Both the position numbers and the translations under genes were made by a program. This document shows, in pieces, positions 37,095 to 59,529 of a stretch of 64,000 nucleotides of DNA. Under the pieces are notes generated by a model. The model worked only from the letters and a program-made list of their open reading frames with translations. It ran no database searches and was not told the origin of the DNA. Source of the DNA: Escherichia coli (GTDB lineage: Bacteria; Pseudomonadota; Gammaproteobacteria; Enterobacterales; Enterobacteriaceae); the NCBI RefSeq assembly GCF_024700885.2, contig NZ_CP117016.1. One strand, written 5' to 3'. How positions within the stretch are numbered: the stretch's first letter is position 1; each line of letters begins with the position of its first letter.

Positions 37095-37787
37095 ATGCCC
37101 ATCATTTATACATGAGCACAACATATAGGGTGTGTTAATAAGATTACCCCCTACATGTTCAGCATTCTAGTTAGGATTCTTTGCAGTACAAGGGGTGATT
37201 TTGAGGTTAAATTGAGGTTGTCAAAGGGAAATTTCGACCAACCCTACGTGCCGTAAGGCTTAGGCTGTATGTCAATGTTTCAGAAAAAAAATGAAAATTT
37301 GATCGAGTGCTGATTTCTTTAGCACGAGAACATGAGATCGAACCAAAATATTGCAAAGTTTTGAACAAAACTTGAGCTGCCTCGTGTCTCCATAGCCAAG
37401 ACGAATGCAGTTTAAATAAGCTAAGTCAGCTCTCAAAAGTCCTTTATGACCCGAACCAAAAATTGTACCTCTTAAACCCCCACCGCAAGCGGCTCTCCGG
37501 GGTTTGTGCGCGTGGAGTAATGCGATTGTACTGGGTATGTGCGCACAACCCTCTACAAGCCGCATTCTACCGTTAGCCTATAGCTGAATCCCCGGCTTGA
37601 AAAATTGCACGCTTATGGTTGCCCCTCCCTCAACTGTATAGCTCGCCCGCGCCCCCGTGCGCATGTGCGTGCCCGCGCGTCAGGGGTCGCTGAGAAAACC
37701 CTAAGATTTTGCTCATCCGAGACAACCGTTGCAGGCGCGCGTTGCCGGGGCACACTGTTAGTGTTTGATGGTGTCATCAATCGACCG

Positions 37788-37884
37788 TTTTCTGGCACCT
37801 CCCAATCGCACGCTTTCACACTGTTGGAAAAATAGCCTTGGCTTTTCTGGCAGGCCATCCTAATGTTGGCCTCGTTTTCTGGCA
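37788..37884 (+). promoter_or_regulatory. three direct copies of TTTTCTGGCA upstream of the recombinase gene
   Basis: Copies at 37788-37797, 37843-37852 and 37875-37884. Copy 2 sits in the imperfect palindrome GAAAAATAGCC-TT-GGCTTTTCTG. Confidence 0.4.
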
Positions 37885-37906
37885 GGGGTCAGATGGGGAG
37901 ATAACA

Positions 37907-38467
37907 ATGGCAACTTTTGGCTACGGACGTGTTTCGACATCGCAGCAGGATACTGAGAACCAACGGCTGGAGCTTGGGCAGGCTGGGTGGCAAATTGATT
38001 ACTGGTTTGCCGATGTTGTTAGCGGGAAGGTTCCGGCAATGCAACGTAAAGCATTTTCTGAAATGCTCAATAAAATCCGCGATGGTGAAACGTTGGTGGT
38101 AGCGAAGCTTGATCGTCTGGGGCGTGATGCGATTGACGTCCTGCAAACGGTAAGGGCGCTGGCTGACCGTAATATCAAGGTTCTTGTCCACCAGCTTGGT
38201 AACACAGATCTCACTTCTGCCGCTGGGAAGTTGCTATTATCTATGCTCGCCGCGGTTGCGGAGATGGAGCGTGATCTGCTGATTGAGCGCACTCAGGCGG
38301 GACTATCACGAGCAAAAGCCGAAGGTAAGAAATTGGGCAGACCTCCTAAAATCGCGTCAGAAGCCCGTAGAGAGATTTTAGAGAAAAAGAATAGCGGTTT
38401 GAGTATCAGTGCGTTAGCGCGTCAATATGGCGTTTCAAGAGCGACTGTAGCAGCTATTACCGATTGA
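37907..38467 (+). CDS. small serine recombinase (resolvase/invertase family)
   Basis: Start at MATFGYGRVSTSQQ (catalytic Ser motif) with SD GGGGAG upstream. Contains DRLGRD and the C-terminal HTH GLSISALARQYGVSRATV. 186 aa. Confidence 0.9.
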   Translation: MATFGYGRVSTSQQDTENQRLELGQAGWQIDYWFADVVSGKVPAMQRKAFSEMLNKIRDGETLVVAKLDRLGRDAIDVLQTVRALADRNIKVLVHQLGNTDLTSAAGKLLLSMLAAVAEMERDLLIERTQAGLSRAKAEGKKLGRPPKIASEARREILEKKNSGLSISALARQYGVSRATVAAITD

Positions 38468-38480
38468 ATATGGAGAGTTT

Positions 38481-39326
38481 ATGGCTTACACAGCAACTGT
38501 TATCCCTGTAATGATTGCTTCTCCTGGTGATGTCGCTGAAGAGAGACAAGTCATTCGTGAAATGATCCATGAGTGGAATGATATAAATTCAGCTCGTTCA
38601 AAAGTAATGTTGACACCAATTGGATGGGAAACTCATACATCACCCGAATTAGGAGTTAGGCCTCAGAAGTTGATTAATCAAAGATTATTAGTAGATTGTG
38701 ATTTATTAATCGGTGTGTTTTGGACTCGTCTAGGCTCACCGACTGGGAACGAGGCCAGCGGAACAGTCGAAGAAATCCACCGTCATTTGAATGCGGGAAA
38801 ACCGGCAATGATTTACTTTTCCTCAAAGCCTGTTGCCCCTGAAAGCCTTGATAGAGAACAATATGAGTCTCTTAAATTGTTCAAAACTGAGTGCATGCAA
38901 AAGGGATTGATAGAGTCTTTTAATGACTTATCTGATTTCAAAGACAAAGTCCGTAGGCAACTTTCGATAATTATTTCTAGTAGCCCTTATTTGTCTTCTC
39001 TTATATCTACCATTAACAATTCTCCTGATGCGAATACAAGTCAATCTTTGCCAGAAAGTAATTTGTCCGCCGATGCACTCAGTTTGCTGAAATTGGCATG
39101 TGTCGATGATAGCGGAACAATTTATGTGATAAGGCATTTAGGTGGCACGGATATTCAAGCGGGAAATCAATCCTTTGGTGGAAGTTCGGCTAGAGAGGTA
39201 GCCCGTTGGGAGGGCGCACTTAACGAACTGTTATCCTTTGATTATGTGATTGAAAGAGGGGCAAAAGGACAAATGTATTATGTTACTCATAAAGGCTGGA
39301 CATTTCTTGAATCTTTAAATGAATAA
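38481..39326 (+). CDS. DUF4062 / TIR-like (nucleoside 2-deoxyribosyltransferase-like) N-terminal domain protein with an unknown C-terminal domain
   Basis: N-terminal VMIASPGDVAEER ... CDLLIGVFWTRLGSPTG..ASGTVEEIHRHLNAGKPAMIYFS matches my memory of the DUF4062 pattern. Lies 13 nt after the recombinase stop with SD GGAGAG upstream. Confidence 0.6.
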   Translation: MAYTATVIPVMIASPGDVAEERQVIREMIHEWNDINSARSKVMLTPIGWETHTSPELGVRPQKLINQRLLVDCDLLIGVFWTRLGSPTGNEASGTVEEIHRHLNAGKPAMIYFSSKPVAPESLDREQYESLKLFKTECMQKGLIESFNDLSDFKDKVRRQLSIIISSSPYLSSLISTINNSPDANTSQSLPESNLSADALSLLKLACVDDSGTIYVIRHLGGTDIQAGNQSFGGSSAREVARWEGALNELLSFDYVIERGAKGQMYYVTHKGWTFLESLNE

Positions 39327-39360
39327 TTAAATGCGAGGCCATTACATAAGTTTATTTTTG

Positions 39361-39390
39361 ATGTGAGGGTGAATTCCCTCACATTTTTAT
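39361..39390. terminator. bidirectional terminator between convergent genes
   Basis: ATGTGAGGG-TGAATTC-CCTCACAT hairpin with T-runs on both sides. Confidence 0.7.
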
Positions 39391-39881
39391 TCGAAAGAGG
39401 CCGCAATGACTTCTCCTGTTTTTGCGTTGAAAACACAAAAGTATTGAAGCGGAGCTAGCATCCCCAAGCCGTTAACTACCTTAGCTTGTTGCCCAAATGC
39501 CTGAATAATCTTCGCATTCTCATCGTGCCAGAGATAAGTATTAAATACAGGCGCTTCGCTTTCTTGCCACACATGGCGAAACTTCGCTTTCTCATCCATT
39601 ACCTTTTTGCACTCCCTGACCGGGTTATGGTGCGTTTTCGCATAGCATTCCGGGTTGTCATCTGCACATACGATATCTTTTCGTGCTGTCTGATGCTCAG
39701 CACCTACAGCAGAAAAGGCGCATACGCCCAGCACCAATGAGAGAGTGCCCAGAGCACCCCATACAGTTGCGCGTAGCGTGCTGATGTGCTGCTTTGATAC
39801 AGCATGGGCAACTACACTATAACTGGCCCAGCTAATCGCGGCTCCCGCTGCAATCGGTAGTAAAAAGTCTGCTCCCGTCAT
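39387..39881 (-). CDS. small membrane protein (2 predicted TM helices plus a Cys-containing soluble domain), unknown function
   Basis: Start chosen at MTGADFLLPIAAGAAISW with SD GAGGGAA upstream. A second hydrophobic stretch is VWGALGTLSLVLGVCAFSAV. Confidence 0.65.
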   Translation of the reverse strand: MTGADFLLPIAAGAAISWASYSVVAHAVSKQHISTLRATVWGALGTLSLVLGVCAFSAVGAEHQTARKDIVCADDNPECYAKTHHNPVRECKKVMDEKAKFRHVWQESEAPVFNTYLWHDENAKIIQAFGQQAKVVNGLGMLAPLQYFCVFNAKTGEVIAASFE

Positions 39882-39941
39882 GATTCCCTCACTTTCCAAA
39901 CCACATCGCGCCTGATAGCGAACGCTGGTGACGCCCAACCG

Positions 39942-39955
39942 ATGATGATCATCAT
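39942..39955. promoter_or_regulatory. perfect 14-bp palindrome in the divergent promoter region (candidate XRE operator)
   Basis: ATGATGATCATCAT (contains GATC), about 60 bp upstream of the 2-TM gene start. Confidence 0.4.
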
Positions 39956-40121
39956 ACTTGTTGGGTTTTAAATGTCACCATTGGTGTTTGTTTTGAATCA
40001 AAAAGGATTGTCATGATACAGCCGATGAATGCTAGTGACTAAGCTCGCTGACGTGAGATTGGATTCAAAATATCTCATATGGAGCGTGGCCTTACAGTGG
40101 TCAAAATTGCACATTCAGTGC

Positions 40122-40586
40122 ATGAAAAAATCCCTGAGAATACAGTTTGGCGAGCGGGTAAAAGAACTGCGCATTGCCACCGGATTGAGCCAGGAGGCCT
40201 TTGCCGATCGGTGCGGGTTTGCACGTAGTTATATGAGCAGAATTGAACGTGGTGGCTCTAATGCGTCTCTGGATGCGATTGAGGTGCTGGCTAACGCTCT
40301 GAGCGTTGAGCCGTGGCAGTTGTTAGCGCCTGGCCCATCTGAAGATAACGACTCGGAACTGTTGGTTCCATACGCAGCCGATGGTTCCTGTTTTCACCCC
40401 GGTTTGGCGAGCACCCGTGATGGCTCGTTTGGCGTAGGTGATAAAGCGGCTCAGAAGCGTTTTGGCACGTTTGCTGAAGCTCTTGAGTATCTTCGTAGCA
40501 TGGAGACAGCAAAATGGCGTAGGCCTAATCCTAGCGGCAACTGGGGTATCGTATCAGCGGTTCGGTGGGACAAACTGAGAAAGTAG
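40122..40586 (+). CDS. XRE-family HTH regulator with an approximately 85-aa C-terminal extension
   Basis: MKKSLRIQFGERVKELRIATGLSQEAFADRCGFARSYMSRIERGGSNASLDAIEVLANAL is a canonical Cro/C1 HTH. The start is uncertain: there is no clear SD, and an alternative start lies at 40029. Confidence 0.75.
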   Translation: MKKSLRIQFGERVKELRIATGLSQEAFADRCGFARSYMSRIERGGSNASLDAIEVLANALSVEPWQLLAPGPSEDNDSELLVPYAADGSCFHPGLASTRDGSFGVGDKAAQKRFGTFAEALEYLRSMETAKWRRPNPSGNWGIVSAVRWDKLRK

Positions 40587-41287: not shown

Positions 41288-41734
41288 ATGGCATTAACAG
41301 ATATCAAAGTCAGAGCAGCCAAGCCAACGGATAAGCAATATAAGCTGACTGATGGTGGCGGTATGCATCTGCTTGTCCATCCAAATGGTTCTAAGTACTG
41401 GCGTTTGCAGTACCGTTATGAGGGAAAGCAAAAAATGCTGGCACTTGGGGTTTATCCTGAAATCACACTAGCGGATGCCAGAGTACGTCGTGACGAGGCG
41501 CGTAAGCTGCTTGCGAATGGCGTCGATCCGGGAGACAAAAAGAAAAATGATAAGGTTGAACAGAGTAAAGCACGAACCTTTAAAGAAGTCGCGATTGAGT
41601 GGCATGGCACCAATAAAAAGTGGTCTGAAGATCACGCCCATCGTGTGCTAAAAAGTCTTGAAGATAATCTTTTTGCAGCGCTTGGTGAACGTAATATCGC
41701 TGAGTTAAAAACTCGAGATTTATTAGCACCTATT
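41288..41734 (+). pseudogene. intB: P4-type tyrosine integrase, N-terminal approximately 149 codons only
   Basis: MALTDIKVRAAKPTDKQYKLTDGGGMHLLVHPNGSKYWRLQYRY... is the conserved P4 Int/IntB N-terminus. Similarity stops after ...KTRDLLAPI, and no catalytic R..HxxR..Y domain follows. Confidence 0.85.
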
Positions 41735-42359
41735 GTTCCTTTAACCATCCGCAATGGCCAACGGTTTACAGAGCATAATACGAATAGCCGTAGAGCCAGC
41801 CAGTTACGGTGGTCGCGATGGTGTGTCCGCCAGAAAATCACCACGAATACCAGAATCGCGGCACTGACCAGAAAATGATAAACAGGAAACACGGGGAGGT
41901 TCACTTTGCTTTCTCCTGTAGTATTTTCTGTAGGTTCTGAACCGGTTCGAGCGGGGTTGTGAGGCTGATGGCAATCCCCGGGCTCTTCCTGCATGTTACA
42001 CTGGTACTGCAACAGGGGGCCTTCGCTCCTATGACATTACTCAGTATTTTCACTACTACACCCCATCTGCCATCCATAACAACCGATTCACCCCCTCGGG
42101 AGGCGTTGTTGCCCGTCACCCGGACAGGCATCGTTATGGACTTCTCTTGTTGCACGATCGATCAATTGTTATGCATGCTGACACCACTACCCCGGTGGGT
42201 ATGACCGATGCCTTTCTCACTCTCTTCCCGGTCATCGTCGGCCTTCCCCGTTATTGTGGCGTGTCGGCACCATCGACGGCATTTCGATGGCTGCTCAGTG
42301 TTCACTCACGTTACGGCCCGCATAACCCATTGACTTCCTGAAGAAGTCGTTTCAGGGAG

Positions 42360-42700
42360 AGATTCAGCCCTTTTGTTACCTCCTGGACCGCTTCCTGTCC
42401 TTCCAGTTGGAGCGAGAGTTAGTCGGGGCGGACTTTCACCGACGGAAAGATCGTGCATTTCAAGGCACACACAACAATATCTGCGAGCGTGCTATCCGTC
42501 CGGTCGTTATGGGACGAAAGGCCTGGTTGTTCGCTGGTTCACTGATGGCCGGGAACCGAGCGGCACAGATAATGAGCCTTCTGGAAACAGCAGTCTGGAG
42601 CCACATGCTTGGCTGACGGACGTCCTAACGCGTCTGCCCGGAGTGGCCGGAGGAGAGGTTGGCAGAGTTACTGCCTCTTGAGGGCTTTACCTTCTTTGGG
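42360..42700 (+). pseudogene. IS66-family transposase (TnpC) C-terminal remnant, frameshifted
   Basis: One frame reads NNICERAIRPVVMGRKAWLFAGS...AAQIMSLLETA. A second frame reads EPHAWLTDVLTRLP. Confidence 0.75.
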
Positions 42701-43045
42701 TAAGTGATACCTGCCGTCAGGTGTTTGTGCACCGGGCCATAACCTGCAGTTGGGAATTGAACGCCTGACAACAGGAAATGAGCTAGAGCAGTAAACACGC
42801 GGGCTGACAATGGGTCAGAATATGAGTCTGCCCGGCGTTATTCTTGGGGTCAGTACTTCAGATCCAGCCTCCGGTACCAGACTAGCTAGCCCCTACGCAA
42901 CCAAATAAATCAACCATCGTAAGAGTGCAATCGTTCATATACACTGCCGGTGATGGGCGGAAAAATGCGTTAATGTTGAGTTCCTCGAACCCTTACCAAT
43001 TAAGGGACATAGCCAGATACGCAACTGGCTGATGCAAGCAGTCTG

Positions 43046-43358
43046 ATGTCTTTAGATTCGCTGGCCTGCGGGCATGACAATGTCAAACAGTCAAAGATTG
43101 TGGCGTTGACGGTCAGTCTGGGTCGTAAAAACTTCCTGTTCTTCGGCTCTGACCATGGTGGTGAGCGGGGAGCGCTACTGTACAGCCTGATCGGGACGTG
43201 CAAACTGAATGACGTGGATCCAGAAAGCTACCTTCGCCATGTGCTTGGCGTCATAGCAGACTGGCCGGTCAACCGGGTCAGCGAACTGCTTCCGTGGCGT
43301 ATAGCACTGCCAGCTGAATAACACATCCCCGTCAATACGGCCCTCGCTGTACGCTTAC
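43046..43358 (+). mobile_element. IS66-family right-end fragment (TnpC tail plus terminal repeat)
   Basis: LGRKNFLFFGSDHGGERGALLYSLIGTCKLNDVDPESYLRHVL..., with the DNA ending ...ACGCTTAC (the characteristic GTAAGCG terminus). Confidence 0.8.
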
Positions 43359-43815
43359 GATTAGTGGTGGTGTCTTCCAGTGCGAGGAGCAGCGGATGAG
43401 CCTCACATGCCCTTGCAGTGGCGGTAAATCCGGCTTAGGCAATGGCTTCCGGGGACACAGACGGGTTACGTATCAGGCGGTACGCACTTTCAACCTGAGC
43501 AGTGGAGTGGGATGATTTCACAATAGAAAGACCTGCATGCTGAGCGAGAGAAGAGGCCAGTGACACAAGGCGTCGTGTACGACGCGGATCACCGAGACGG
43601 GCATGTCCAAACTGCTCGTTATCCCATGAATAACAATCAGAAAGTACCATAACAGACCCGAAGAAAATGAAATATAAGAGAAGATCAACGGGTGAAGAAA
43701 AAGTTCAAAAAATCGCTGCCGGGGAGGAAGGAAACTACCGAATGGAAAGAGTCCCCCTAAAGCAGACTGACAGACATCACAAATCCCCGGGTGGGGATTT
43801 GTGTATAAGAGACAG
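43359..43815 (-). pseudogene. IS4-family (IS50/Tn5-like) left-end remnant with a truncated transposase
   Basis: The minus-strand end CTGTCTCTTATACACAAATC resembles the Tn5 outside/mosaic ends. The N-terminus ...LGDPRRTRRLV...AYRLIRNPSVSPEAI parallels Tn5 Tnp. It has an in-frame stop and is cut at 43358/43359 by the IS66 end. Confidence 0.75.
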
Positions 43816-44113
43816 CCTGATAGGGGGGCGCATACATTATGCATACATACTCTCGGATATTGTAAAAGTTTTTTATATAATTACTAAGTTAGCTACCATC
43901 AATAAAATATTGACGTTAGCAGGTAACATCAACTTAATATATAAAAATATTCTTAGGTGAAAGTAACTGTTCAAGATAAAATAAAATCATCGCTTAAAAA
44001 GAAAAACACTCTCTTTGTTATATACGTACTCTGATAAATGCCAGATAAAACTATTAATTTTCATAAAAATATAATGCCATATATTATGATGCTATACATC
44101 TTACATATTCAAT

Positions 44114-44878
44114 TCAGATATATTTTAATTTTTCCGATAGTTCTTGACACGCATCAAGAACCAAAGTTGAATAATATTCAATTTTTTCTTTAGGTATCTG
44201 AATTTCCACGCCACTAATGCTGATAGCTGCAATTACTTCACGAGTCTGATTAAATACCGGAGCAGCAATACAATAAATTCCCGGTGAATCCTCTGCGTTA
44301 TCAAAAGCCCATCCACGTTCACGAATACGTGCAAATTCCTGTATTAGATCAGATTTACGAGTGATAGTTGTTTGCGTAAATCGTGGCAACGTTTCCTCAG
44401 GCAACAATGTGTCAATGACGTCTTGAGGTAACCACGCACATAAAGCCTTACCAACTCCAGAACTATGGAGTGGCAACTTCTTGCCTACCCACGTTCTGAT
44501 GCCAATTGGTTGTGTACTCTCGAGTTTCAAAATATAGATTGGAGCGACTTCATCGAGAATGCCCAGATGGCAGATAAGATCAGTACTGTCTCTCAGTTTT
44601 TCTAGAACCGGCCTCGCTACCTTACTGATGTCAAACTGCTCCAGAGATCGATTCCCCCATTCATACAATTTCAGCCCAAGAAAAAAACGCCCTCTTTCCT
44701 GACGTAACAGATGATGTTCGACAAGGGCATTCAGTAAAGATGATGTGCTGCTTTTTGGCAGATCCAGATCCTGCTGGATCTGGCTGAAGGTGGCGCCTGG
44801 AGAGCTAAAAAGGTAATTGCAGACTCTGACAGTTTTATCGAGTGCTGGTACCGATGTTCTGATGGTTTGATTATTCAT
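44114..44878 (-). CDS. IclR-family transcriptional regulator
   Basis: Start at MNNQTIRTSVPALDKTVRV, with a winged-helix N-terminus and an IclR effector domain. Divergent from the catabolic operon. Confidence 0.85.
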   Translation of the reverse strand: MNNQTIRTSVPALDKTVRVCNYLFSSPGATFSQIQQDLDLPKSSTSSLLNALVEHHLLRQERGRFFLGLKLYEWGNRSLEQFDISKVARPVLEKLRDSTDLICHLGILDEVAPIYILKLESTQPIGIRTWVGKKLPLHSSGVGKALCAWLPQDVIDTLLPEETLPRFTQTTITRKSDLIQEFARIRERGWAFDNAEDSPGIYCIAAPVFNQTREVIAAISISGVEIQIPKEKIEYYSTLVLDACQELSEKLKYI

Positions 44879-45078
44879 AAAAAAATATGATTCCTTACAA
44901 TACTGAATAGTATACCCCATTCCCCCTTGATGCGCAGCGGCGCTTAGCACACATATTATACATGGCCTCCGCGTACCGGCATGCCTCTATAAACCTGACT
45001 TATTTCACACTTTTCATATCGCATTGTAAAAACATTTGACATGCAAAACCTGAATTTGATTCACTTTATTCAGCATAA

Positions 45079-45107
45079 AGAACTTATGTTCCATATACAG
45101 AACTTAG
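45079..45107 (+). promoter_or_regulatory. candidate IclR operator
   Basis: AGAACTTA is repeated at 45079 and 45099. The first copy is part of the GAAC-TTAT-GTTC inverted repeat, immediately upstream of the aldolase start. Confidence 0.35.
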
Positions 45108-45117
45108 TGAGAGTGAT

Positions 45118-46017
45118 ATGTTGACAGCGTTTAGAGGTATTTTCCCGCCAGTTCCTACAATTGTTGACGCACAAGGGAAACTAGATAAGGCTGGCATGGC
45201 CCGGATGATCGACCATGTTTTAGAAAATGGTGCAAACGGGATGTTGATCCTTGGCAGTGGGGGAGAATTCTCACAATTTTCTTCCCAGCAACGAAAAGAG
45301 ATAGCTGCATTTTGCTTAAGTCATGTAGATGGCAAAGTGCCTGTTCTGGTGGGGATCGCCTGCGCGGGAACTGCAGAAACTATTGATTTAGGACATCATG
45401 CACAGGAGCACGGAGCTGATGGTGTGATGGTGGTGAATCCGTATTATGCAAAACTCAGCGATGATGCCCGGTTTATGCATTACAAATCTATTGCCGATTC
45501 ACTTAAAATTCCAGTGTTTCTCTATAACTTTCCTGATCTGACCGGTCAGGATATTGGGCTTGAGGTCATTACCCGGCTGGCCCGGGAAGTTCCAAATATC
45601 GTGGGTATCAAGGATACCATCGATAATATCAGCCATACCCGGGAAGTCATCAACCGTGTACATGCTTTTCGTCCGGATTTCATTATATTCAGCGGATATG
45701 ACGAATATATGCTGGATACCCTGTTACTGGGCGGCCATGGTGGTATTCCGGCGACATTCAATTTTGCTCCAAATATCACACGTGGTATTTATCAGGCCGT
45801 TATGGAAAATGATCTTGATAAAGCACGTTCTTTTCAGCAACAACTGGCAAAACTGTCTCCGTTATACACACTGGAGCAGCCTTTCTTTGGCGTGATAAAA
45901 ACTGCCATCAAACTGAGTGGACTGGACATATCTACTGCAGTTATGGCACCGGCTCTTCCGCTCAGTGATGACAAGGTCGCCAGGGTGAAAGCCATTCTGG
46001 AACACATTCACCAGTGA
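45118..46017 (+). CDS. DapA/NanA (class I aldolase, DHDPS) family protein
   Basis: 299 aa with GSGGEF, YNFPDLTG and the Schiff-base region VGIKDT. Confidence 0.85.
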   Translation: MLTAFRGIFPPVPTIVDAQGKLDKAGMARMIDHVLENGANGMLILGSGGEFSQFSSQQRKEIAAFCLSHVDGKVPVLVGIACAGTAETIDLGHHAQEHGADGVMVVNPYYAKLSDDARFMHYKSIADSLKIPVFLYNFPDLTGQDIGLEVITRLAREVPNIVGIKDTIDNISHTREVINRVHAFRPDFIIFSGYDEYMLDTLLLGGHGGIPATFNFAPNITRGIYQAVMENDLDKARSFQQQLAKLSPLYTLEQPFFGVIKTAIKLSGLDISTAVMAPALPLSDDKVARVKAILEHIHQ

Positions 46018-46033
46018 TTACGAGGATCGTAAG

Positions 46034-47551
46034 ATGAATAAGACTCCGATACTCAAATTAAATAACTCGGATGATGTCGTTATTGCCAGGACAGAACTTC
46101 CTGCCGGAAGCTGGCTGGAATCTGAAAGTATGGAAACACGTGACCTTATTCCGGCAGGGCACAAAATTGCTCTTCGGGATATTCCGGCCGGCAGTGCCGT
46201 TAAACGCTATGGACAGATAATCGGTTTTGCGACCCGTGACATCCGACAGGGCGAACATATTCATGTGCATAATCTCGGTATGGGGAGTTTTGAGCGTGAT
46301 TATGCCTGGGGGATAGACAGTCATCTTCCGGAAAAGGATGTTCATCAGGATACCTTTATGGGGATCCGCAGAAAAGACGGACGGGTGGCAACCCGTAATT
46401 ATATTGGTGTACTGAGTTCTGTAAACTGTAGTGCAACCGTAGTAAGGGCAATTGAAGATCATTTCCGTACCCGTGGTCTCAGTGATTACCCTAATGTGGA
46501 TGGTATTGTTGCCCTCCCACAAAGTTTTGGTTGTGCCTTTGGCTCTGACAGCGAAATGATGAAAGTCATGCGGAGGACAATGGCAGGCTATGCCACGCAC
46601 GCGAACTTTGCCGGGATCGTGATCGTGGGACTGGGATGTGAATCATTCCAGATTAAGGACATGATGAATGCCCACGGATTACATGAAAGTCCTGTATTCC
46701 ATACAATGACTATTCAGGAAAGCGGCGGAACACGTAACGCTATAGAAAAAGGTATTTCCTTCATTCTCGACATGCTCCCGGAAGCCAACAATGTCAAACG
46801 AGAACCAGTTCCGGTATCAGAAATCATTCTGGCTCTTGAGTGTGGCGGCTCTGATAGCTATTCAGGAATTTCCGCTAATCCGGCTCTCGGGTACGCAGTT
46901 GATCGCCTGGTTCGCCAGGGAGGAACGGCTATTCTGTCGGAAACATCGGAAATTTATGGAGCAGAACACCTTCTGACACGCCGTGCCATTAGTCGCGAAG
47001 TTGGCGAGAAACTAATCCGCAGAATTAAGTGGTGGGAAGAGTACTGTAAACGTACAGGGAGTGAAATGAATAACAACCCTTCTGCAGGTAATAAAGCGGG
47101 GGGACTGACCACTGTTCTGGAGAAATCGCTGGGAGGGATAGCAAAAGCTGGTACAACCAGCTTAATGGATGTATATGAATATGCTGAACCGGTGACAGCA
47201 AAAGGGCTTGTCTTTATGGATACCCCCGGATATGACCCGATGGCAGTAACCGGACAAATCGCCGGAGGAGCCAACCTGCTGTGTTTTACCACGGGCAGGG
47301 GATCTGCCTTTGGCGCAAAACCCACTCCTTGTCTGAAACTGTCAACCAATAACGCACTATGGCAACGGCAGCGCGACGACATGGATTTAAACTGTGGCAC
47401 GATTGTTGATGGCGAAGAAACAATAGAACAGGTTGGAGAACGTATTTATCAGAGAATTATTGAGCTGGCTTCAGGTCATCGTAGTCGAAGTGAAGAGCTG
47501 GGTTATGGGAGCCAGGAATTCGTTCCCTGGATAATGAACTCAATCATGTAA
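46034..47551 (+). CDS. UxaA/GarD-family sugar-acid dehydratase (SAF N-terminal domain)
   Basis: 505 aa, collinear with remembered GarD/UxaA blocks (GHKIAL, LECGGSDSYSGISANPALGY, PSAGNKAGGLTTVLEKSLG, TTGRGS). Confidence 0.85.
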   Translation: MNKTPILKLNNSDDVVIARTELPAGSWLESESMETRDLIPAGHKIALRDIPAGSAVKRYGQIIGFATRDIRQGEHIHVHNLGMGSFERDYAWGIDSHLPEKDVHQDTFMGIRRKDGRVATRNYIGVLSSVNCSATVVRAIEDHFRTRGLSDYPNVDGIVALPQSFGCAFGSDSEMMKVMRRTMAGYATHANFAGIVIVGLGCESFQIKDMMNAHGLHESPVFHTMTIQESGGTRNAIEKGISFILDMLPEANNVKREPVPVSEIILALECGGSDSYSGISANPALGYAVDRLVRQGGTAILSETSEIYGAEHLLTRRAISREVGEKLIRRIKWWEEYCKRTGSEMNNNPSAGNKAGGLTTVLEKSLGGIAKAGTTSLMDVYEYAEPVTAKGLVFMDTPGYDPMAVTGQIAGGANLLCFTTGRGSAFGAKPTPCLKLSTNNALWQRQRDDMDLNCGTIVDGEETIEQVGERIYQRIIELASGHRSRSEELGYGSQEFVPWIMNSIM

Positions 47552-47628
47552 TAACTACAGGCATAATTTGTTTTGCCCGGAAATAAGGAAACAAACTGAA
47601 TCCTGTTTTTGATAATTAGAGGTGAATA

Positions 47629-48636
47629 ATGGAACGTAAACCAGTACTGGGCATTTTTTTAGGTGAAGCTGCCGGCATTGGACCTGAACTGGTTGCCAAA
47701 GTCGTAGCTGATGGTACTGTCTATAAATATTGCAGACCTGTTCTGATTGGCGATGCCCGGGTACTTGCTCTTGGGCAAGAGATTGCTGGTGTGGATTTTC
47801 AGTGGGATGTCATCAGTGATCCCACTGAAGCTGACTGGACTACGGGAAATGTACCATTACTTGATTTGAAAAATTTTAATCCCGAAAAACTAACTATGGG
47901 CACCATTGACACTGCCTCAGGTTATGCAACAGGAGAATCACTGGTAACCTGTATGTCATTACTTAAATCAGGTAAAATTGACGGTTTTGTTTTCGCTCCA
48001 CTCAATAAAGAAGCGTTCAAGAAGGGGGGCTGGGATATTGAGGACGAACATTATCTCTTTGCTGAGCAGTTAGGATACTTGGATAAACCACGTGGCCTGT
48101 TGAATGTCCTTGATGACCTCTGGGTTTTTCGCGTGACGGGACATATTCCATTCAAAGATATTGCCAGCCATATTACACCAGAAAATGTCAGTCGTTCGAT
48201 TCAGTTATGCTACGATACATTAAAGATGGCGGGTTATAAATCACCTCGCATTGCAGTTGCGGCACTAAATCCTCATGCTGGTGATGGTGGTACATGTGGC
48301 ACTGAGGAAATAGATGTACTTATCCCTGTAATTGAAATGTTTCGGGAGAAAGGAATGGATATGTACGGTCCTGTCCCAGGGGACACCATCTTTATTCATG
48401 CATTTAATCATGAATATGATGCGATCGTTACCCTGTTCCATGATCAAGGACAAATTGCCACCAAGCTTCATTCCTTTGATGTGGGCATAACTGTAGCCGC
48501 CGGGCTTCCATTTGCTATAACAACACCGGAACATGGCACTGCATTTGATATTGCAGGTAAGGGGATCGCAAAAACAATGGCTACAGAGAGGGCTATTGCT
48601 GTTGCAGCCAGAATGGCATCAACAACACAGAAATAA
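47629..48636 (+). CDS. PdxA-family NAD(P)-dependent hydroxy-acid dehydrogenase
   Basis: 335 aa with the PdxA signatures LNPHAGDGG and EHGTAFDIAGKGIA. Confidence 0.8.
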   Translation: MERKPVLGIFLGEAAGIGPELVAKVVADGTVYKYCRPVLIGDARVLALGQEIAGVDFQWDVISDPTEADWTTGNVPLLDLKNFNPEKLTMGTIDTASGYATGESLVTCMSLLKSGKIDGFVFAPLNKEAFKKGGWDIEDEHYLFAEQLGYLDKPRGLLNVLDDLWVFRVTGHIPFKDIASHITPENVSRSIQLCYDTLKMAGYKSPRIAVAALNPHAGDGGTCGTEEIDVLIPVIEMFREKGMDMYGPVPGDTIFIHAFNHEYDAIVTLFHDQGQIATKLHSFDVGITVAAGLPFAITTPEHGTAFDIAGKGIAKTMATERAIAVAARMASTTQK

Positions 48637-48937
48637 TTTTTATAATAGCAGATAATAATACAATATATAACTTATATTGAGGGATATAGATATTATCTGC
48701 ATTAAAATGAGCTTTATAAAATGTCTTTATAAAGTTATCGCAAGTAATAGTGACTGTTTAAAATAGCAATAGACTATTTTATCTTCTAAGGAATACGATA
48801 CAGTCTATTGTTGGACTTATAGGAGCACTACTTCTCGGAACTATTCTTTGTTAGTAATTTCGCAATCAATATCCAGAAAGTAAAATCAAATTTTAACATA
48901 TTTAGTCTAATAGGTGTATTATTAAAGGAGAATAATT

Positions 48938-50203
48938 ATGTCCGCCTATGAGAAAGCAACAAATATAAGATGGAGAATATTTTTTGTACTTTTCCTTCTT
49001 GTTGTTGTCAGTATGATTGATCGAGCCTCAATATCTATAGCTATGCCTACTATTGCTAAAGATCTGGGATTAAGCGATACGATGCAAGGACTAATCTTGA
49101 GTGGTTTTTTCTGGACTTATGCATGCATGCAAATACCGGGTGGATTTTTAGCCGATAAATTTGGGGCAAGAATTATATTAGCATGCTCGGCAATACTTTG
49201 GGGAACTGCAGAAGCACTATTAGGGTTATGCCCAACAGGCTTTGCCTTACTTGCTGCTAATCTATTGCTTGGTGCAAGTGAAGCACCTGTATTTCCTTCT
49301 GGAGCCAGACTGAATGCAATCTGGCTTAACAAAAATGAAAGAGCTCGGGGAGCAACACTAATGGATGCAGGAGGGCCATTTGGTGCTGCAATTGGAGGAA
49401 TATTAGTAGCTGAAATGATGTTATATTTTACATCATGGCGGATTACCTTCATTATTTGTGGCATCGCAGCTATAACTCTGGGGCTAATCGCATACTGGGT
49501 TATTCGCGACAGGCCTGAAGATTCGCCAAGAGTGAATAACAAAGAACTGGGAATCATTAATCTCGATCGTGTTGTACAAGATACAGTAGAAGAAAATAAT
49601 GATCCCTTATTAAAAGTGATTCCACTACGTTCCTTCATCGGCATGCTTCTAGGCCGTTGTTCATGGGCTATGTGTTTCTTTGGTTTATTAACATGGGGGC
49701 CGGGATATCTTACACGAGCATTAAACCTGGATTTAAAAGCCGTTGGGTTTGCCACAATGATCGTTTTCTGTGCAGGTGGTTGTGGTAGCCTTTGTGGAGG
49801 ATGGCTCGCAGATAAACTTGCAAGTAAAGGGTTCGGACAGGCTAGATCATGTAAATTTCTATTAACAGTGTCAGGTATCTGCACGCTTATATCATTTGCT
49901 TTATTACCAAGTATTCCTGACGTAAAAACATCGATTATTTTACTGTCCTGCGCTGCATTTGTTTTAATGTGGGGAAGTATGTACTGGACATTCCCTCCTT
50001 TACTGGCACCCCGTTCTCGCGTAGCTACCGTCGGAGGAATGATGAATATGGCGGGAAGTGTTGGGGGCATTTGCATTCCTTTATTAGTAGGACTTATTTT
50101 AGATGTAACAAATTCATTCAATCCTGTACTCTATTTCTTTGCTGGTTGCGCAGTGATATTTATTTTAATGACAAACATTATTGATTTACGACACGTGCGA
50201 TAG
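48938..50203 (+). CDS. MFS transporter, anion:cation symporter (DgoT/GudP-like) type
   Basis: 421 aa and about 12 TM helices, with DRASISIAMP...QIPGGFLADKFGAR similar to sugar-acid MFS permeases. SD AAGGAG upstream. Confidence 0.85.
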   Translation: MSAYEKATNIRWRIFFVLFLLVVVSMIDRASISIAMPTIAKDLGLSDTMQGLILSGFFWTYACMQIPGGFLADKFGARIILACSAILWGTAEALLGLCPTGFALLAANLLLGASEAPVFPSGARLNAIWLNKNERARGATLMDAGGPFGAAIGGILVAEMMLYFTSWRITFIICGIAAITLGLIAYWVIRDRPEDSPRVNNKELGIINLDRVVQDTVEENNDPLLKVIPLRSFIGMLLGRCSWAMCFFGLLTWGPGYLTRALNLDLKAVGFATMIVFCAGGCGSLCGGWLADKLASKGFGQARSCKFLLTVSGICTLISFALLPSIPDVKTSIILLSCAAFVLMWGSMYWTFPPLLAPRSRVATVGGMMNMAGSVGGICIPLLVGLILDVTNSFNPVLYFFAGCAVIFILMTNIIDLRHVR

Positions 50204-50212
50204 GAGATAAAT

Positions 50213-51169
50213 ATGAACATTAAGCCACTAAATTTATATGATGGTCCTGTAATCGATGCTCATCATCATTTCTGGGATCCGATAAAAAACGATCATCCTT
50301 GGTTGAAACCGGATGTTTTAATTCCTTTTAGATATGGTGATTATACAGCCATTAAGAGAAAATATTATCCAGAAGATTATTTTGCAGATGTAGGTGATAT
50401 TAATATTGTTGAAACATGTTATATGGAAACTGAATGGAATCCAACGGATCCATGTGGTGAAAGCGATTTCATTACATCAGTGGCAAAAATGACAGGTTAT
50501 CCAAATGCTGTTGTCGGTCAGGCTTGGTTAAACCATGATGATATAGATTCTGTATTAAAAATGCAGAGCTCATATAAGCTAATGCGAAGCATCAGACATA
50601 AACCTGAAGGCCCGGATAAACCAGAAGATGTTGGACAGTATACCACACTGATGAGTGATGAAAAATGGCGATATGGCTATTCGTTACTTTCGAAATATAA
50701 TTTAATGTTTGACCTTCAGACCCAGTGGTGGAACCTGCATGAAGCAGTAAAACTTGCAAATGATTTTCCAGATACAGTCATAATACTTAACCATACAGGA
50801 CTTCCTGCACAACGATCTGCTGAAGGGCTTGCCGGTTGGCATTCAGCAATGGCTTCTTTAGCTGAGTGTCAAAATGTTATGGTCAAAATTTCGGGAATAG
50901 GTTTAAAAGGAATCCCATGGACAATGGAGAATAATTTATGGATTATATCTGAAACCTTATCAATGTTTGGTCCTGACAGGGTAATGTTTGCAAGCAATTT
51001 CCCCGTAGATAGCCTTTGTGGCAGCTTTACTAATATATTCCATGGTTTTATGACAGTGTGTGAAATGAAAGGATATTCGCATGCCGCTCAGCGGAAGATG
51101 TTTCATGACAATTGTAAGAGAATTTATCGAACAATCCCACCACATAAATTGAAAGAAAAGCATAGCTAA
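50213..51169 (+). CDS. amidohydrolase-2 family protein (sugar-lactonase-like)
   Basis: 318 aa. The N-terminal IDAHHHFWDP metal-binding motif resembles the L-fucono/L-rhamnono-lactonase type amidohydrolase-2 enzymes. Confidence 0.75.
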   Translation: MNIKPLNLYDGPVIDAHHHFWDPIKNDHPWLKPDVLIPFRYGDYTAIKRKYYPEDYFADVGDINIVETCYMETEWNPTDPCGESDFITSVAKMTGYPNAVVGQAWLNHDDIDSVLKMQSSYKLMRSIRHKPEGPDKPEDVGQYTTLMSDEKWRYGYSLLSKYNLMFDLQTQWWNLHEAVKLANDFPDTVIILNHTGLPAQRSAEGLAGWHSAMASLAECQNVMVKISGIGLKGIPWTMENNLWIISETLSMFGPDRVMFASNFPVDSLCGSFTNIFHGFMTVCEMKGYSHAAQRKMFHDNCKRIYRTIPPHKLKEKHS

Positions 51170-51676
51170 TAACCATACAACAAAACCTGATATTTATTGT
51201 GATATATAACGTATCAAACTTTATAACTTTTAAATATATGTTATGTTCATACTATGTCGAATGATAGTGCTCAAGTAGCACATCTAAAAAGACAATGCAA
51301 AACAGTAATAACCCCCCTTGCTAAAAAAAGGGGGGTATCATCCCTACACCGTCTCCAAAGGAGATGGAGATAGTTCCTATAAGGTCATAGCCTAAAAAAT
51401 ACCTATGACGGAATATCTCAACTTACTCACCACAATTAAAAAGAGACAAAATGACATGGAGTTTATGTGACCTCATCCCATTTTGCACAGCCTCCATTGT
51501 TCTGACATTGACGGCAGGTTGCCGCTTTATATCCGGCTTTATTGCAGCCATAAAGTTATGTGCCACTATATAATTCTCTGACTCACACTTCATTTACTGC
51601 ACGGGCTTCAAGCCCAAACCTCATGCAGGTTTAGTGAGTCCCAATCTTACCTGTCTTTATCATCTGTCACGAACGA

Positions 51677-53249
<1,573 letters not shown>

Positions 53250-53297
53250 TGAAATTCCTGAGAGAATAGTGGACACCAAATATGGTGGACGCTATCC

Positions 53298-53702
53298 ATG
53301 AAATCATTAACCGCAGTGCGTAAAAAAAGCCCTAATTATCCCGTTGAGTTCAAAATCAAAATGGTTGAACTCTCGCATCGACCAGAGATCTCCGTAGCGC
53401 AACTCGCTCGTGAGCATGGGATCAACGATAATTTGCTGTTCAAGTGGCGCCAGTACTGGCGCGAAGGAAAACTACGTCCTCCTTCAACAACAGAAAACAA
53501 CGTGCCTGAGCTGCTCCCGATAACACTTGATGCCGAAGATGTTGTCCCTACAACCTCCCCCCGGTCACAACCTGTAGCTGCTGCGACACCTGAATCACTC
53601 AATATCAGCTGTGAAGTGACGTTCCGGCACGGATCACTCCGTCTGAATGGTGCCATCAGCGAAAATATCCTGAACCTGCTGATACGGGAGCTCAAACGTT
53701 GA
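53298..53702 (+). CDS. IS66-family TnpA (HTH)
   Basis: 134 aa with VAQLAREHGINDNLLFKWRQ. Confidence 0.85.
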   Translation: MKSLTAVRKKSPNYPVEFKIKMVELSHRPEISVAQLAREHGINDNLLFKWRQYWREGKLRPPSTTENNVPELLPITLDAEDVVPTTSPRSQPVAAATPESLNISCEVTFRHGSLRLNGAISENILNLLIRELKR

Positions 53703-54046
53703 TCCCATTACCATCAGGGACAAAGATCTGGCTGGTCGCTGGCATCACCGATATGAGAAACGGCTTCAACGGCCTGGCGGCAAAGGTGCAGACGACGCTG
53801 AAAGACGATCCGATGTCAGGTCACGTTTTTATCTTCCGTGGGCGTAATGGCAGTCAGGTAAAGCTCCTCTGGTCTACCGGCGATGGACTGTGTCTGCTGA
53901 CCAAACGGCTGGAGCGCGGCCGCTTCGCCTGGCCGTCAGCCCGGGATGGCAAAGTGTTCCTCACACCGGCACAGCTGGCGATGCTGCTGGAAGGTATCGA
54001 CTGGCGGCAGCCTAAAAGACTACTTACGTCCCTGACTATGTTGTAA
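53699..54046 (+). CDS. IS66-family TnpB
   Basis: 115 aa starting MIPLPSGTKIWLVAGITDMRNGFNGLAAKV. Overlaps the tnpA stop (ATGA). Confidence 0.88.
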   Translation: MIPLPSGTKIWLVAGITDMRNGFNGLAAKVQTTLKDDPMSGHVFIFRGRNGSQVKLLWSTGDGLCLLTKRLERGRFAWPSARDGKVFLTPAQLAMLLEGIDWRQPKRLLTSLTML

Positions 54047-57768: not shown

Positions 57769-58800
57769 TCATGTACTCTGACGTAATTCTATCTGGTAGT
57801 TGAATTGCACGATACGCGACTCTTCTGATTCATCATGATTATTATTCAATAGCCCAATCAGTAACTTACCCGTCTCTATCCCCATTTTTTTGTAGTCAAT
57901 ACGGATGGATGTCAAGGTTGGGTGTGTTTGATCGCAATTGTCTGAACCATCAAGACAAGCTACAGCGATATTTTCAGGAATTTTTAACAAACGCCGCTGG
58001 CACTCAAACATGATACCCAGCGCAATCTCTTCGTGGCTGCAAATCACAGCATCCAGCTCTGGTTGTCGCAGTAATATCTCGTTTAATGCGTAACGCCCCA
58101 ATTGCAGACTTGCGGCATCCGGCATGGTGATAACAAGATCAGAGTTCTGGTAATGGCTCAACATTGCTTTATGCCAGCCGTTCAGTTGCTGACGTTGCAG
58201 GCGGTTGTCCATATGCGCACCGATAAATCCGATATTCTTATAACCCTGTTCCAGCAGATGTTCGGTCAGTTTATGTGATGCTTCAAAAAATGCTGTTTCG
58301 ATGGTAATTTGAGCCGGACTGAAAGGGGAACCGACAACGTTAATGGTAGGTATATTTGTTTTCTCGAGTATCTGGTGAGTTTTATCAGCCAACTGAGAAC
58401 CAAAAATAACTAACGCCGCCGGGTTGCCTTGAAGAAGCGTCATCAGAATTTCAGCTTCTTTGAGCTGATTATACTCATGACACCCAAGCAGTAGCTGGAA
58501 TTCATTTTTATTAAGCACCTGCTGCAACGACTGCATAAAGCGGGAGCTGGCTTTATCTGTCAGGGAAGGAACCAGTACGGCGACTGTATCACTGTGACCA
58601 GATGCAAGGGCGCCAGCAGTTCTGTTGGGAATATAACCCAACTCTTCTACGGCCTGTTCTATCTTTTCCCTCAGCTTGTCAGATACCTGTTCCGGTGTTC
58701 TCAGCGCACGGGAAACGGTCATGGTTCCGACACCTGCAAAGTTAGCGACCTCCTGCAGCGTCACCCGTCCGGTACCACGGCGCTTACGTGTTTTTTCCAT
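57769..58800 (-). CDS. LacI-family transcriptional regulator
   Basis: 343 aa with the HTH VTLQEVANFAGVGTMTVSRALR and a periplasmic-binding-like effector domain. Confidence 0.9.
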   Translation of the reverse strand: MEKTRKRRGTGRVTLQEVANFAGVGTMTVSRALRTPEQVSDKLREKIEQAVEELGYIPNRTAGALASGHSDTVAVLVPSLTDKASSRFMQSLQQVLNKNEFQLLLGCHEYNQLKEAEILMTLLQGNPAALVIFGSQLADKTHQILEKTNIPTINVVGSPFSPAQITIETAFFEASHKLTEHLLEQGYKNIGFIGAHMDNRLQRQQLNGWHKAMLSHYQNSDLVITMPDAASLQLGRYALNEILLRQPELDAVICSHEEIALGIMFECQRRLLKIPENIAVACLDGSDNCDQTHPTLTSIRIDYKKMGIETGKLLIGLLNNNHDESEESRIVQFNYQIELRQST

Positions 58801-59514: not shown

Positions 59515-59529
59515 TCCAGAGGAACATTT

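Follow-up and report, generated by a model that had tools for sequence, protein, structure and literature searches.

Our analysis suggested that a six-gene cluster of Escherichia coli, at positions 44114-51169 of a 64,000-nt stretch of contig NZ_CP117016.1 (the whole of which we call the window), may well be a non-phosphorylative operon that, under the control of an IclR-family regulator, would convert a branched (2-carboxy) sugar acid to a pentonate, and the pentonate to pyruvate and glycolaldehyde. All six open reading frames (ORFs) were located at these coordinates in the ORF list of the window, and their products gave strong Pfam matches to the families named in a preliminary description of the region: an IclR regulator, an aldolase of the DHDPS/NAL family, a UxaA/GarD-type dehydratase, a PdxA-family enzyme, a major facilitator superfamily (MFS) transporter and an Amidohydro_2 hydrolase (AH2). 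Judging from sequence, the entry module (MFS, AH2 and PdxA) is probably orthologous to that of a published ascorbate-catabolite pathway, and the exit module (UxaA and aldolase) would work like the Dahms and Route I aldolase pathways. While the entry step is known, its joining to a UxaA-plus-aldolase exit has not been described previously, and our literature search returned no paper on this gene combination or on this E. coli/Salmonella locus. The 'pdxA-like cluster' of the BEN2908 paper, which we considered as a prior description, is a different, kinase-containing locus. Note that none of the six proteins reached a curated equivalog cut-off in an NCBIfam search, so no annotated function can simply be transferred to them.

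The central evidence concerns the PdxA homologue. This protein is 32% identical to PdxA of E. coli K-12 and falls below all the NCBIfam equivalog cut-offs for this family, both those for PdxA of pyridoxal phosphate biosynthesis (TIGR00557, 257 versus 290 bits; NF002992, 284 versus 470 bits) and that for PdxA2 (NF002891, 205 versus 583 bits). Its Zn-ligand residues His172, His216 and His271 are conserved. The proteins of our comparison set (E. coli PdxA, PdxA2 2hi1 and 6e85, and 4jqp) share the motifs GHTE, RTS(V/A)DHGTA and HDQG(L/H)xP; in the window protein these read DEHY, ITTPEHGTA (with Arg changed to Ile) and HDQGQIA, respectively. Neither GHTE nor RTSxDHGTA was found in any of the ~95 loci carrying a PdxA-family gene, or among the 240 homologues listed. 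HDQGQ was part of the search pattern used in the genome scan and the other two motifs were not; moreover, loci retrieved independently, through AH2, show the same replacements of GHTE and RTSxDHGTA. On these motifs the window PdxA is a member of a large non-canonical PdxA subfamily, and not the singular oddity that the preliminary description had seen in it.

The lost motifs would correspond to the ligands of the substrate phosphate. A tblastn search with K-12 YgbK placed a DUF1537 kinase within 9 kb of the PdxA-family gene in 5 of 80 loci and adjacent to it in none, and neither this search nor the RefSeq annotation revealed one at the window cluster. The annotation used here was that of strain DFL.5, a proxy that is 99.99% identical to window positions 32114-63169; it contains no kinase of any kind within the six-gene cluster, in agreement with the preliminary description, nor in the 12 kb on either side. 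What does accompany the members of the subfamily are carboxylate transporters (MFS, TRAP, TctABC or GntP), Amidohydro_2 hydrolases and acid-sugar dehydratases. Thus, because the motifs are lost, because DUF1537 kinases are rare and never adjacent and because carboxylate transporters lie alongside, these comparisons support the earlier proposal that the window PdxA acts on a non-phosphorylated hydroxy-acid. The PdxA2/DUF1537 pathways for tetronates (D-threonate, D-erythronate and L-threonate) provide the PdxA fold, the Zn histidines and the oxidative decarboxylation of a β-hydroxy-acid that would also apply here. However, PdxA2 enzymes act on 4-phospho-tetronates made by the adjacent DUF1537 kinase and keep GHTE and RTSxDHGTA, whereas the window PdxA lacks these motifs and has no such kinase beside it. 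Should the pathway proposed below be correct, a large class of 'PdxA' genes, whose members are routinely mis-annotated as encoding the vitamin B6 enzyme 4-hydroxythreonine-4-phosphate dehydrogenase, would gain a role.

The subfamily evidently serves several other carboxylate pathways too. Firmicute members from a metagenome (L007) and from Clostridium swellfunianum (L008), whose PdxA genes lie at ~9001-10038 of their loci and whose products are 55-59% identical, stand behind sigma-54 PrpR-type activators; their partners are an MFS transporter and a cyclase-family hydrolase, or TctCBA with sugar-phosphate-isomerase-like and transketolase genes.

Genome neighbourhoods pair PdxA with the amidohydrolase and place its step after ring opening and before dehydration. 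The best NCBIfam match of the MFS transporter (MFSa) is the D-galactonate-transporter subfamily TIGR00893, which makes the earlier term 'DgoT-like' a fair one. AH2 does carry the previously noted HHHFW motif, at residues 17-21 (VIDAHHHFWDP), and its sole NCBIfam match is L-fucono-1,5-lactonase (NF052480), at 79 bits versus a cut-off of 400, far short of a fuconolactonase assignment. MFSa was accompanied by AH2 in 7 of 7 organisms, and orthologues of 47-70% identity adjoin AH2 in loci L009, L010, L093, L097 and L098. When plasmids and chromids were searched with AH2, a PdxA-family gene stood beside it in four of the five best contexts inspected, with Variovorax as the exception. The distant genes were identified by tblastn and from the listed gene calls. 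Methylobacterium nodulans has the order LysR-MFS(47%)-AH2(58%)-PdxA and Chelatococcus GntR-PdxA-TctCBA-AH2; in Mesorhizobium a PdxA-family gene lies beside AH2, and in Halomonas the AH2 and PdxA pair is found alongside carboxylate transporters.

Dehydratases of the enolase superfamily that resemble LyxD are a recurrent partner. In Caballeronia, a LysR gene is followed by LyxD-like dehydratase-MFS(48%)-PdxA(41%)-AH2(48%); in Pseudomonas sp. ENNP23, LysR-TctABC, MFS-AH2-PdxA and MFS-LyxD-like-unknown-aldehyde dehydrogenase stand together; and Sulfitobacter has DctP-LyxD-like-DHDPS-PdxA-aldehyde dehydrogenase. The Caballeronia dehydratase scores ~620 bits to PDB entries 3stp, 3ssz and 3sqs, of which 3STP is reportedly LyxD, the dehydratase of L-lyxonate described by Ghasempur et al. 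2014. A LyxD-like gene (60-84% identity) directly adjoins a PdxA-subfamily gene in 11 loci of Alpha-, Beta- and Gammaproteobacteria. In the window, in Salmonella, in a Firmicute-like scaffold (L009) and in a Desulfovibrio metagenome-assembled genome (MAG; L010), the dehydratase slot is instead occupied by UxaA. The recurrent design is a carboxylate transporter, AH2, a PdxA-like enzyme and an acid-sugar dehydratase of either the enolase superfamily or the UxaA family, and the presence of PdxA beside both types of dehydratase fits a PdxA that makes the dehydratase substrate.

The window MFS, AH2 and PdxA are homologous (48%, 61% at 407 bits, and 42% identity) to the Pseudomonas sp. ENNP23 trio, that is, to a trio operonic with LyxD-type dehydratases. 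This homology makes the 2-carboxy-L-threo-pentonolactones and 2-carboxy-L-threo-pentonate, which form spontaneously from oxidised vitamin C, the likeliest substrates, and the earlier judgement that no substrate could be deduced from the sequence was too pessimistic. The pathway in question is the one that Stack et al. reportedly described in 2020 in Cupriavidus necator H16. There, 2,3-diketo-L-gulonate from oxidised ascorbate is said to be rearranged to 2-carboxy-L-lyxonolactone, which a lactonase of the amidohydrolase superfamily opens; a PdxA-family enzyme, using NAD+ catalytically, then reportedly decarboxylates 2-carboxy-L-lyxonate to L-lyxonate, which enters the LyxD pathway. The upstream enzymes are said to be a cytochrome b561-type oxidase, a gluconolactonase-family hydrolase and a WD40-like rearrangement enzyme, and the pathway was reportedly also found in P. 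aeruginosa, for whose strain PAO1 Ghasempur et al. are said to have described the L-lyxonate pathway in 2014. C. necator and PAO1 were not among the organisms named in our homology search; species of Caballeronia, Paraburkholderia and Pseudomonas were.

With the C. necator ascorbate and PAO1 lyxonate pathways as reportedly described, the common features would be an Amidohydro_2-type lactonase and a kinase-free PdxA that act on an imported non-phosphorylated carboxy-aldonate and hand the product to an acid-sugar dehydratase. There are also differences. The window dehydratase is of the UxaA/GarD type and not an enolase-superfamily LyxD, and no MR_MLE or Aldedh gene is present in the cluster; the predicted last step is a YagE-like aldol cleavage and not a second dehydration followed by oxidation to α-ketoglutarate; the regulator belongs to IclR and not to LysR; and the clade of the window PdxA and that linked to LyxD are not sister groups. 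Orthologues with an assigned place in a characterised pathway, which the preliminary description had named as the observation that would count against it, thus probably exist for the entry half of the cluster and not for the exit half.

A gene of 328-352 aa without any Pfam match follows the LyxD-like dehydratase in Gammaproteobacteria (L085, 12177-13235; L098, 12962-13948; also L064, L066 and L071). Its products are 58-64% identical between genera, and an aldehyde dehydrogenase gene comes next in both loci checked (L098 and L071). In the lyxonate pathway its product probably acts as the second dehydratase, a member of a family apparently lacking a Pfam model. We had considered the 352-aa Halomonas gene as the upstream rearrangement enzyme; its constant place between LyxD and the aldehyde dehydrogenase fits a second dehydratase better. 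No homologue of this gene was found in the window.

The chemistry of ascorbate decay bears on what the entry module could receive. 2,3-Diketo-L-gulonate rearranges non-enzymically to a single dicarboxylate, 2-carboxy-L-threo-pentonate (also called '2-carboxy-L-xylonate' or '2-carboxy-L-lyxonate'), and further yields two epimeric lactones with one ionisable carboxylate each; these products slowly decarboxylate to L-lyxonate and L-xylonate (PMC11066805, PMC6225978). An anion symporter together with a lactonase would suit the mono-anionic lactones, and GntP or TctABC could take up the open-chain acid. Such a division would explain why MFSa always occurs with AH2, and why the variants without AH2 have a different transporter. 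Moreover, the diacid is prochiral at C2, so that its decarboxylation by a PdxA-type enzyme could yield the pentonate in either epimeric form.

Regarding the exit module, the best solved relatives of the aldolase are the YagE structures 3n2x and 2v8z (295 bits, versus ~150 for DapA and ~131-143 for NanA). Identities of 46% to YagE and 44% to YjhH, and the alignment of the lysine motif GIKDT, likewise mark the protein by sequence as a class I aldolase of the YagE/YjhH type. According to the K-12 annotation and a published account, YagE and YjhH cleave 2-keto-3-deoxy-pentonate to pyruvate and glycolaldehyde in the K-12 xylonate clusters (PMC13279387). The dehydratase belongs to the UxaA/GarD superfamily, as the SAF, GD_AH_second and GD_AH_C domains are all present. 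Its best solved relative is GarD (6u7l, 337 bits), although it stays below the galactarate dehydratase equivalog (404 versus 731 bits). In some newer RefSeq records the PGAP pipeline names this protein (WP_001044501.1) 'D-arabinonate dehydratase', and it is 62-66% identical to proteins of Burkholderiales and from JGI that are labelled arabinonate dehydratase.

In Fischer projections that we drew, the known UxaA/GarD substrates D-altronate, D-arabinonate, L-fuconate, galactarate and D-idonate share the 2,3-threo configuration; L-xylonate has it as well, and L-lyxonate does not. On this basis, and speculatively, L-xylonate would be favoured as the pentonate made here, or D-arabinonate if the precursor comes from erythorbate. 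A characterised member of the superfamily is C785_RS13685, the UxaA-family D-arabinonate dehydratase of Herbaspirillum huttiense, which dehydrates a pentonate and a 6-deoxyhexonate (Watanabe et al. 2019, PMC6336799). It shares with the window protein the superfamily and, in some PGAP records, the name; it differs in feeding Routes II and III (to α-ketoglutarate, or to pyruvate and glycolate) with FAH-family enzymes (PMC6336799).

In the pathway that we propose, the DgoT-like MFS would import the mono-anionic lactone; in Salmonella, Hafnia and Citrobacter, GntP would offer an additional or alternative way in, perhaps to the acid in its open-chain form. The Amidohydro_2 enzyme would open the lactone. 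The PdxA-family enzyme would then oxidise the C3 hydroxyl with NAD+, the resulting β-keto acid would lose one carboxyl, and the ketone would be re-reduced to give the pentonate. This would be L-xylonate by preference, possibly L-lyxonate, or D-arabinonate where the food antioxidant erythorbate is the precursor. The UxaA-family dehydratase would convert it to 2-keto-3-deoxy-pentonate, and the YagE/YjhH-like aldolase would release pyruvate and glycolaldehyde, the latter of which could be processed by AldA and FucO of the host. The divergent IclR regulator would control the operon, possibly by sensing the 2-keto-3-deoxy intermediate like its relatives XynR and YjhI. The route proposed in the preliminary description (uptake, ring opening, dehydration and class I aldol cleavage) is sound in outline, and its aldolase call is strengthened, but it had left PdxA without a step.

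Several features of the cluster recall the K-12 elements yagEF-xynR and yjhIHG: the aldolase clade, an IclR regulator (the window protein is 33% identical to both YjhI and XynR), an acid transporter and residence on horizontally acquired elements; in addition, the Salmonella GntP is 35% identical to YjhF of the yjh cluster. The K-12 xylonate (Dahms-type) clusters differ in using dehydratases of the IlvD/Edd family (YagF and YjhG) and in having neither a PdxA nor an amidohydrolase. The parallel with yjhIHG had been drawn before, together with the statement that yjhIHG lies in the same island region; this location is not visible in the window. In K-12, yjhIHG is found at 4.522-4.526 Mb, presumably within the leuX-adjacent element KpLE2.

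The cluster is, by its substitution pattern, a functional unit under purifying selection. In support of this, dN/dS versus Salmonella is 0.03-0.07 in every one of the six genes (IclR 0.035, aldolase 0.072, PdxA 0.031, AH2 0.030), with dS near saturation, and all six ORFs are full length and equal in length to their orthologues. The 7-kb block is present at 99% identity or more in 55 of 5,426 complete E. coli genomes, always on the chromosome, and the core of IclR, aldolase, UxaA and PdxA is kept in 451 E. coli genomes as well as in Salmonella, Hafnia and Citrobacter. The full cluster occurs in ST648-type E. coli. A partial version, 98.2% identical, is found in ~395 further E. coli genomes including ST131, in which only the first four genes are shared; another MFS (29% identical) comes after them, and no amidohydrolase. 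Hafnia (PdxA 91% identical) and Citrobacter (PdxA 82%) have IclR, aldolase, UxaA and PdxA with a GntP permease, and again no amidohydrolase. In Salmonella enterica seven genes are present, in the order IclR, aldolase-UxaA-PdxA-GntP-MFS-AH2. The six proteins that Salmonella shares with the window are 87-92% identical (MFS 89%) and its GntP is 93% identical to that of Hafnia, because of which the seven-gene form was probably ancestral in Enterobacterales. The nucleotide homology between the window and Salmonella ends at 48636 and restarts at 48953, and the 301-nt gap between PdxA and MFS in the window would mark the lost gntP. An alternative idea, that the cluster is a mosaic of an enterobacterial left half and an MFS-AH2 right half from gut anaerobes, was rejected on the basis of the uniform 87-92% identity of the Salmonella genes and the presence of gntP.

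Outside the Enterobacterales, all six families are syntenic also in the Desulfovibrio MAG and in the Firmicute-like scaffold, where UxaA is split into a SAF gene and a catalytic gene. In these two loci PdxA, MFS and AH2 are 68-79% identical to the window proteins (78-79% for AH2), compared to 48-50% for the aldolase, 37-38% for UxaA and 26-30% for IclR. Thus, across phyla, the entry trio is far better conserved than the dehydratase and the aldolase, and PdxA is the most constant member of the cluster across lineages, while AH2 is absent from several of them. Relative to the ST131 allele, a recombination breakpoint is indicated by the alignment inside the pdxA homologue, at ~47.9-48.1 kb, since the density of mismatches jumps from 7 in the first 3.7 kb to ~80 in the last ~750 bp of pdxA (47864-48624), after which homology stops. 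It is the ST131 allele that is recombinant from inside pdxA onward; over PdxA residues 151-335 it is 94.6% identical to Hafnia, compared to 91.9% for the window allele. In Citrobacter (L005/L006, 4997-6911), an Fe-dependent alcohol dehydrogenase gene divergently adjoins the aldolase gene, with a short-chain dehydrogenase/reductase (SDR) gene alongside; these enzymes would suit the reduction of the aldehyde released by the aldolase (glycolaldehyde or lactaldehyde).

The coordinates of the features are collected in the table. The longest ORF for the IclR regulator spans 44114-44950, and the RefSeq protein, like the Salmonella and Hafnia orthologues, uses the start that gives 254 aa (44114-44878). 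The candidate operator was found by alignment, as its palindrome and half-site are retained in the otherwise diverged intergenic region of Hafnia; the palindrome is short and was missed by the inverted-repeat scan. A promoter and terminator scan of the region gave nothing above the shuffled background. Promoter-like hexamers are present in the PdxA-MFS gap, at 48859-48886 and 48893-48922, in numbers no higher than in the shuffles.

Table. Features of the cluster and its right edge, in window coordinates.
Feature	Position	Strand	Remarks
IclR-family regulator	44114..44878	-	Divergent from the operon; 254 aa, RefSeq WP_001064798.1; Pfam IclR_C 2e-50, HTH_IclR 9e-9
Candidate operator: palindrome GAACTTATGTTC (45080-45091) and third half-site GAACTTAG (45100-45107)	45080..45107		11-38 nt upstream of the aldolase ATG
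YagE/YjhH-clade aldolase (DHDPS/NAL family, class I, Schiff-base)	45118..46017	+	Pfam DHDPS 9e-80
UxaA/GarD-family acid-sugar dehydratase, unsplit	46034..47551	+	Pfam SAF, GD_AH_second, GD_AH_C (3e-100)
Non-canonical PdxA-family NAD-dependent enzyme	47629..48636	+	Pfam PdxA 2e-85
Gap of 301 nt between PdxA and MFS	48637..48937		Probable gntP deletion joint, possible internal promoter
MFS anion:cation-symporter-type transporter (MFSa)	48938..50203	+	Pfam MFS_1 2e-53
Amidohydro_2 (COG3618-type) hydrolase (AH2), proposed lactonase	50213..51169	+	Pfam Amidohydro_2 2e-36
IS21/IS100 remnant (istA with internal stop, shortened istB), right edge of cluster	51751..53252	+	ORFs, RefSeq annotation

A number of results weigh against a pathway for ascorbate-derived acids. 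In a neighbour-joining (NJ) tree, the clade of the window PdxA falls within Firmicute sequences that have different gene contexts; the LyxD-linked proteobacterial PdxAs are not its sister group and share only 41-45% identity with the window protein. Since Hafnia, Citrobacter and the ~395 E. coli genomes including ST131 keep PdxA without AH2, lactone opening is dispensable in them, and the true substrate of the core may differ. The functions of the reference enzymes are those reportedly assigned by Stack et al. 2020. None of the six genes of the cluster encodes an enzyme that would oxidise ascorbate, open its ring or rearrange the product, as all belong to other families, and the flanks hold IS debris, a LacI/PTS unit and an integrase. 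Finally, of 14 acid sugars, C785_RS13685 was reported to use D-arabinonate and L-fuconate alone (PMC6336799), a specificity that does not obviously cover L-xylonate or L-lyxonate.

This last point leads to a non-phosphorylative Route I pathway for L-fuconate or D-arabinonate (or the lactone), like that of the Campylobacter jejuni locus cj0480c-cj0490, which we consider unlikely as an account of the window cluster. AH2 would then be an aldonolactonase, UxaA the L-fuconate/D-arabinonate dehydratase and the DHDPS-family protein a KDF/KDP aldolase releasing pyruvate and L-lactaldehyde or glycolaldehyde. PdxA would have an auxiliary part in redox reactions, such as that of an unusual dehydrogenase of sugars or aldehydes. 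The architecture is indeed close: the C. jejuni locus (FucR; PMC12566272) and the Route I fucose pathway of anaerobes have a divergent IclR repressor, a DapA-like aldolase, a UxaA-type dehydratase, an MFS transporter and an Amidohydro_2 protein, use no phosphorylated intermediates and yield pyruvate and a short aldehyde. The naming of UxaA in some RefSeq records and its 62-66% identity to proteins so named, the substrates of C785_RS13685, the identity of the sole NCBIfam match of AH2, and fucP and aldose-1-epimerase genes ~11 kb downstream in the island all point the same way. However, AH2 falls far below the fuconolactonase cut-off and is 61% identical to the AH2 of clusters with LyxD and PdxA. 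The C. jejuni locus lacks a PdxA and encodes an SDR sugar dehydrogenase, FucP and an aldehyde dehydrogenase, whereas the window cluster has PdxA and none of these three; no aldose 1-dehydrogenase or aldo-keto reductase is encoded by the six genes either, the nearest fucP lies beyond IS elements, and the transporter is of the anion symporter type. Moreover, PdxA, which would be the auxiliary enzyme, is the best conserved protein and is never missing, while AH2 is dispensable; PdxA-family chemistry is the oxidation of β-hydroxy-acids and not of aldoses or aldehydes; and PdxA recurs with AH2 and dehydratases in clusters without fucose-related genes. If the substrate were L-fuconate or D-arabinonate, the cluster would be a more ordinary member of Route I, in which the role of PdxA alone is left to explain.

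We give a similarly low probability to the proposal that PdxA is a net (NADH-producing) dehydrogenase or oxidative decarboxylase of another non-phosphorylated sugar acid, an unrelated acid of dietary or host origin. It might remove one carbon from an aldarate or uronate-derived acid ahead of the dehydration step or, as in Route III, oxidise the 2-keto-3-deoxy acid at its 4-hydroxyl. Given the diverse contexts of this large subfamily (TctABC, TRAP, sigma-54 activators, cyclase-family hydrolases), its substrates must vary, and the position of the window PdxA outside the sister group of the LyxD-linked clade is in line with this. Galactarate dehydratase provides the best NCBIfam and PDB matches of UxaA, 4-dehydrogenases of Route III exist in related pathways (PMC6336799), and the variants without AH2 show the core working without lactone opening. 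But Route III requires a FAH-family C-C hydrolase, which is absent from the cluster, the aldolase standing there instead, nor does the cluster contain a second carboxylate-handling enzyme, for instance a tartronate semialdehyde reductase or a glycerate kinase. That MFS, AH2 and PdxA have been inherited together in five phyla-level lineages, at 42-79% identity, also favours a single conserved entry chemistry. That the cluster is a cryptic or decaying passenger of the island, without a function in E. coli today, is very improbable. It is embedded in the IS debris of the leuX island, its full version is rare, it is rearranged between lineages (gntP lost here, the 3' part replaced in ST131) and it shows no sigma-70 promoter above background; against this stand the intact ORFs, the low dN/dS values and a synteny preserved across genera and phyla.

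Returning to the ascorbate-derived acids, we propose tentatively, and with less confidence than the pathway itself, that enterobacteria and gut anaerobes scavenge breakdown products of vitamin C or erythorbate from gut contents and urine; the carriers that we have in mind are Salmonella, ST648-type E. coli, the Desulfovibrio MAG and the Firmicute-like metagenome scaffold. In this proposal GntP would serve the open-chain acid and MFS with the lactonase the lactone, and the PdxA-type (yielding a 2,3-threo pentonate, e.g. L-xylonate), UxaA-type and YagE-like enzymes would have new specificities, leading to pyruvate and glycolaldehyde and not to α-ketoglutarate. If true, the bacterial chemistry of ascorbate catabolites, recently described for aerobic Proteobacteria of soil, would reach enteric bacteria and strict anaerobes as well, with a modular swap downstream in which UxaA and aldolase replace LyxD, KdlD and the dehydrogenase. 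Ascorbate breakdown products occur in the diet, in gut contents and in urine, and such a pathway in leuX islands associated with extraintestinal pathogenic E. coli (ExPEC) and in Salmonella would be a plausible niche-fitness trait.

The cluster lies inside the leuX island, ~8.6 kb from leuX (tRNA-Leu CAA, 35419-35503), and is flanked on both sides by IS remnants, according to the ORFs and the DFL.5 annotation. On the left (41288-43960) there is a shortened tyrosine integrase with IS66 and IS4 fragments (at ~42.4-43.7 kb), and on the right (51751-54046) the IS21/IS100 istA/istB remnants with IS66 tnpA/tnpB. The Salmonella copy is likewise bordered by IS21 and other transposases, and this shared arrangement suggests that the cluster is mobile as an IS-bounded cassette. 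A G+C-rich hairpin (ACCCCCC...GGGGGGT, 51311-51336), located ~140 nt past the AH2 stop codon, may be a bidirectional terminator at the cassette edge.

Two further units of the window deserve mention. Between leuX and the shortened P4-type integrase there is a ~5-kb insert (36017-40586), which ST131 does not have. It carries a hypothetical gene (36017-36931, minus strand), a recombinase-family gene (37907-38467), a DUF4062 gene (38481-39326), another hypothetical gene (39387-39881, minus strand) and an HTH gene (40122-40586), and resembles a small mobile or defence-like module. On the other side of the cluster, a LacI-family regulator (57769-58800, minus strand) is accompanied by PTS IIA, IIB and UlaA-like IIC genes (59071-61086). 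ST131 has a truncated IIC gene in its version of the island, and the whole unit (57769-61086) is presumably similar to the ExPEC 'vpe' carbohydrate permease locus.

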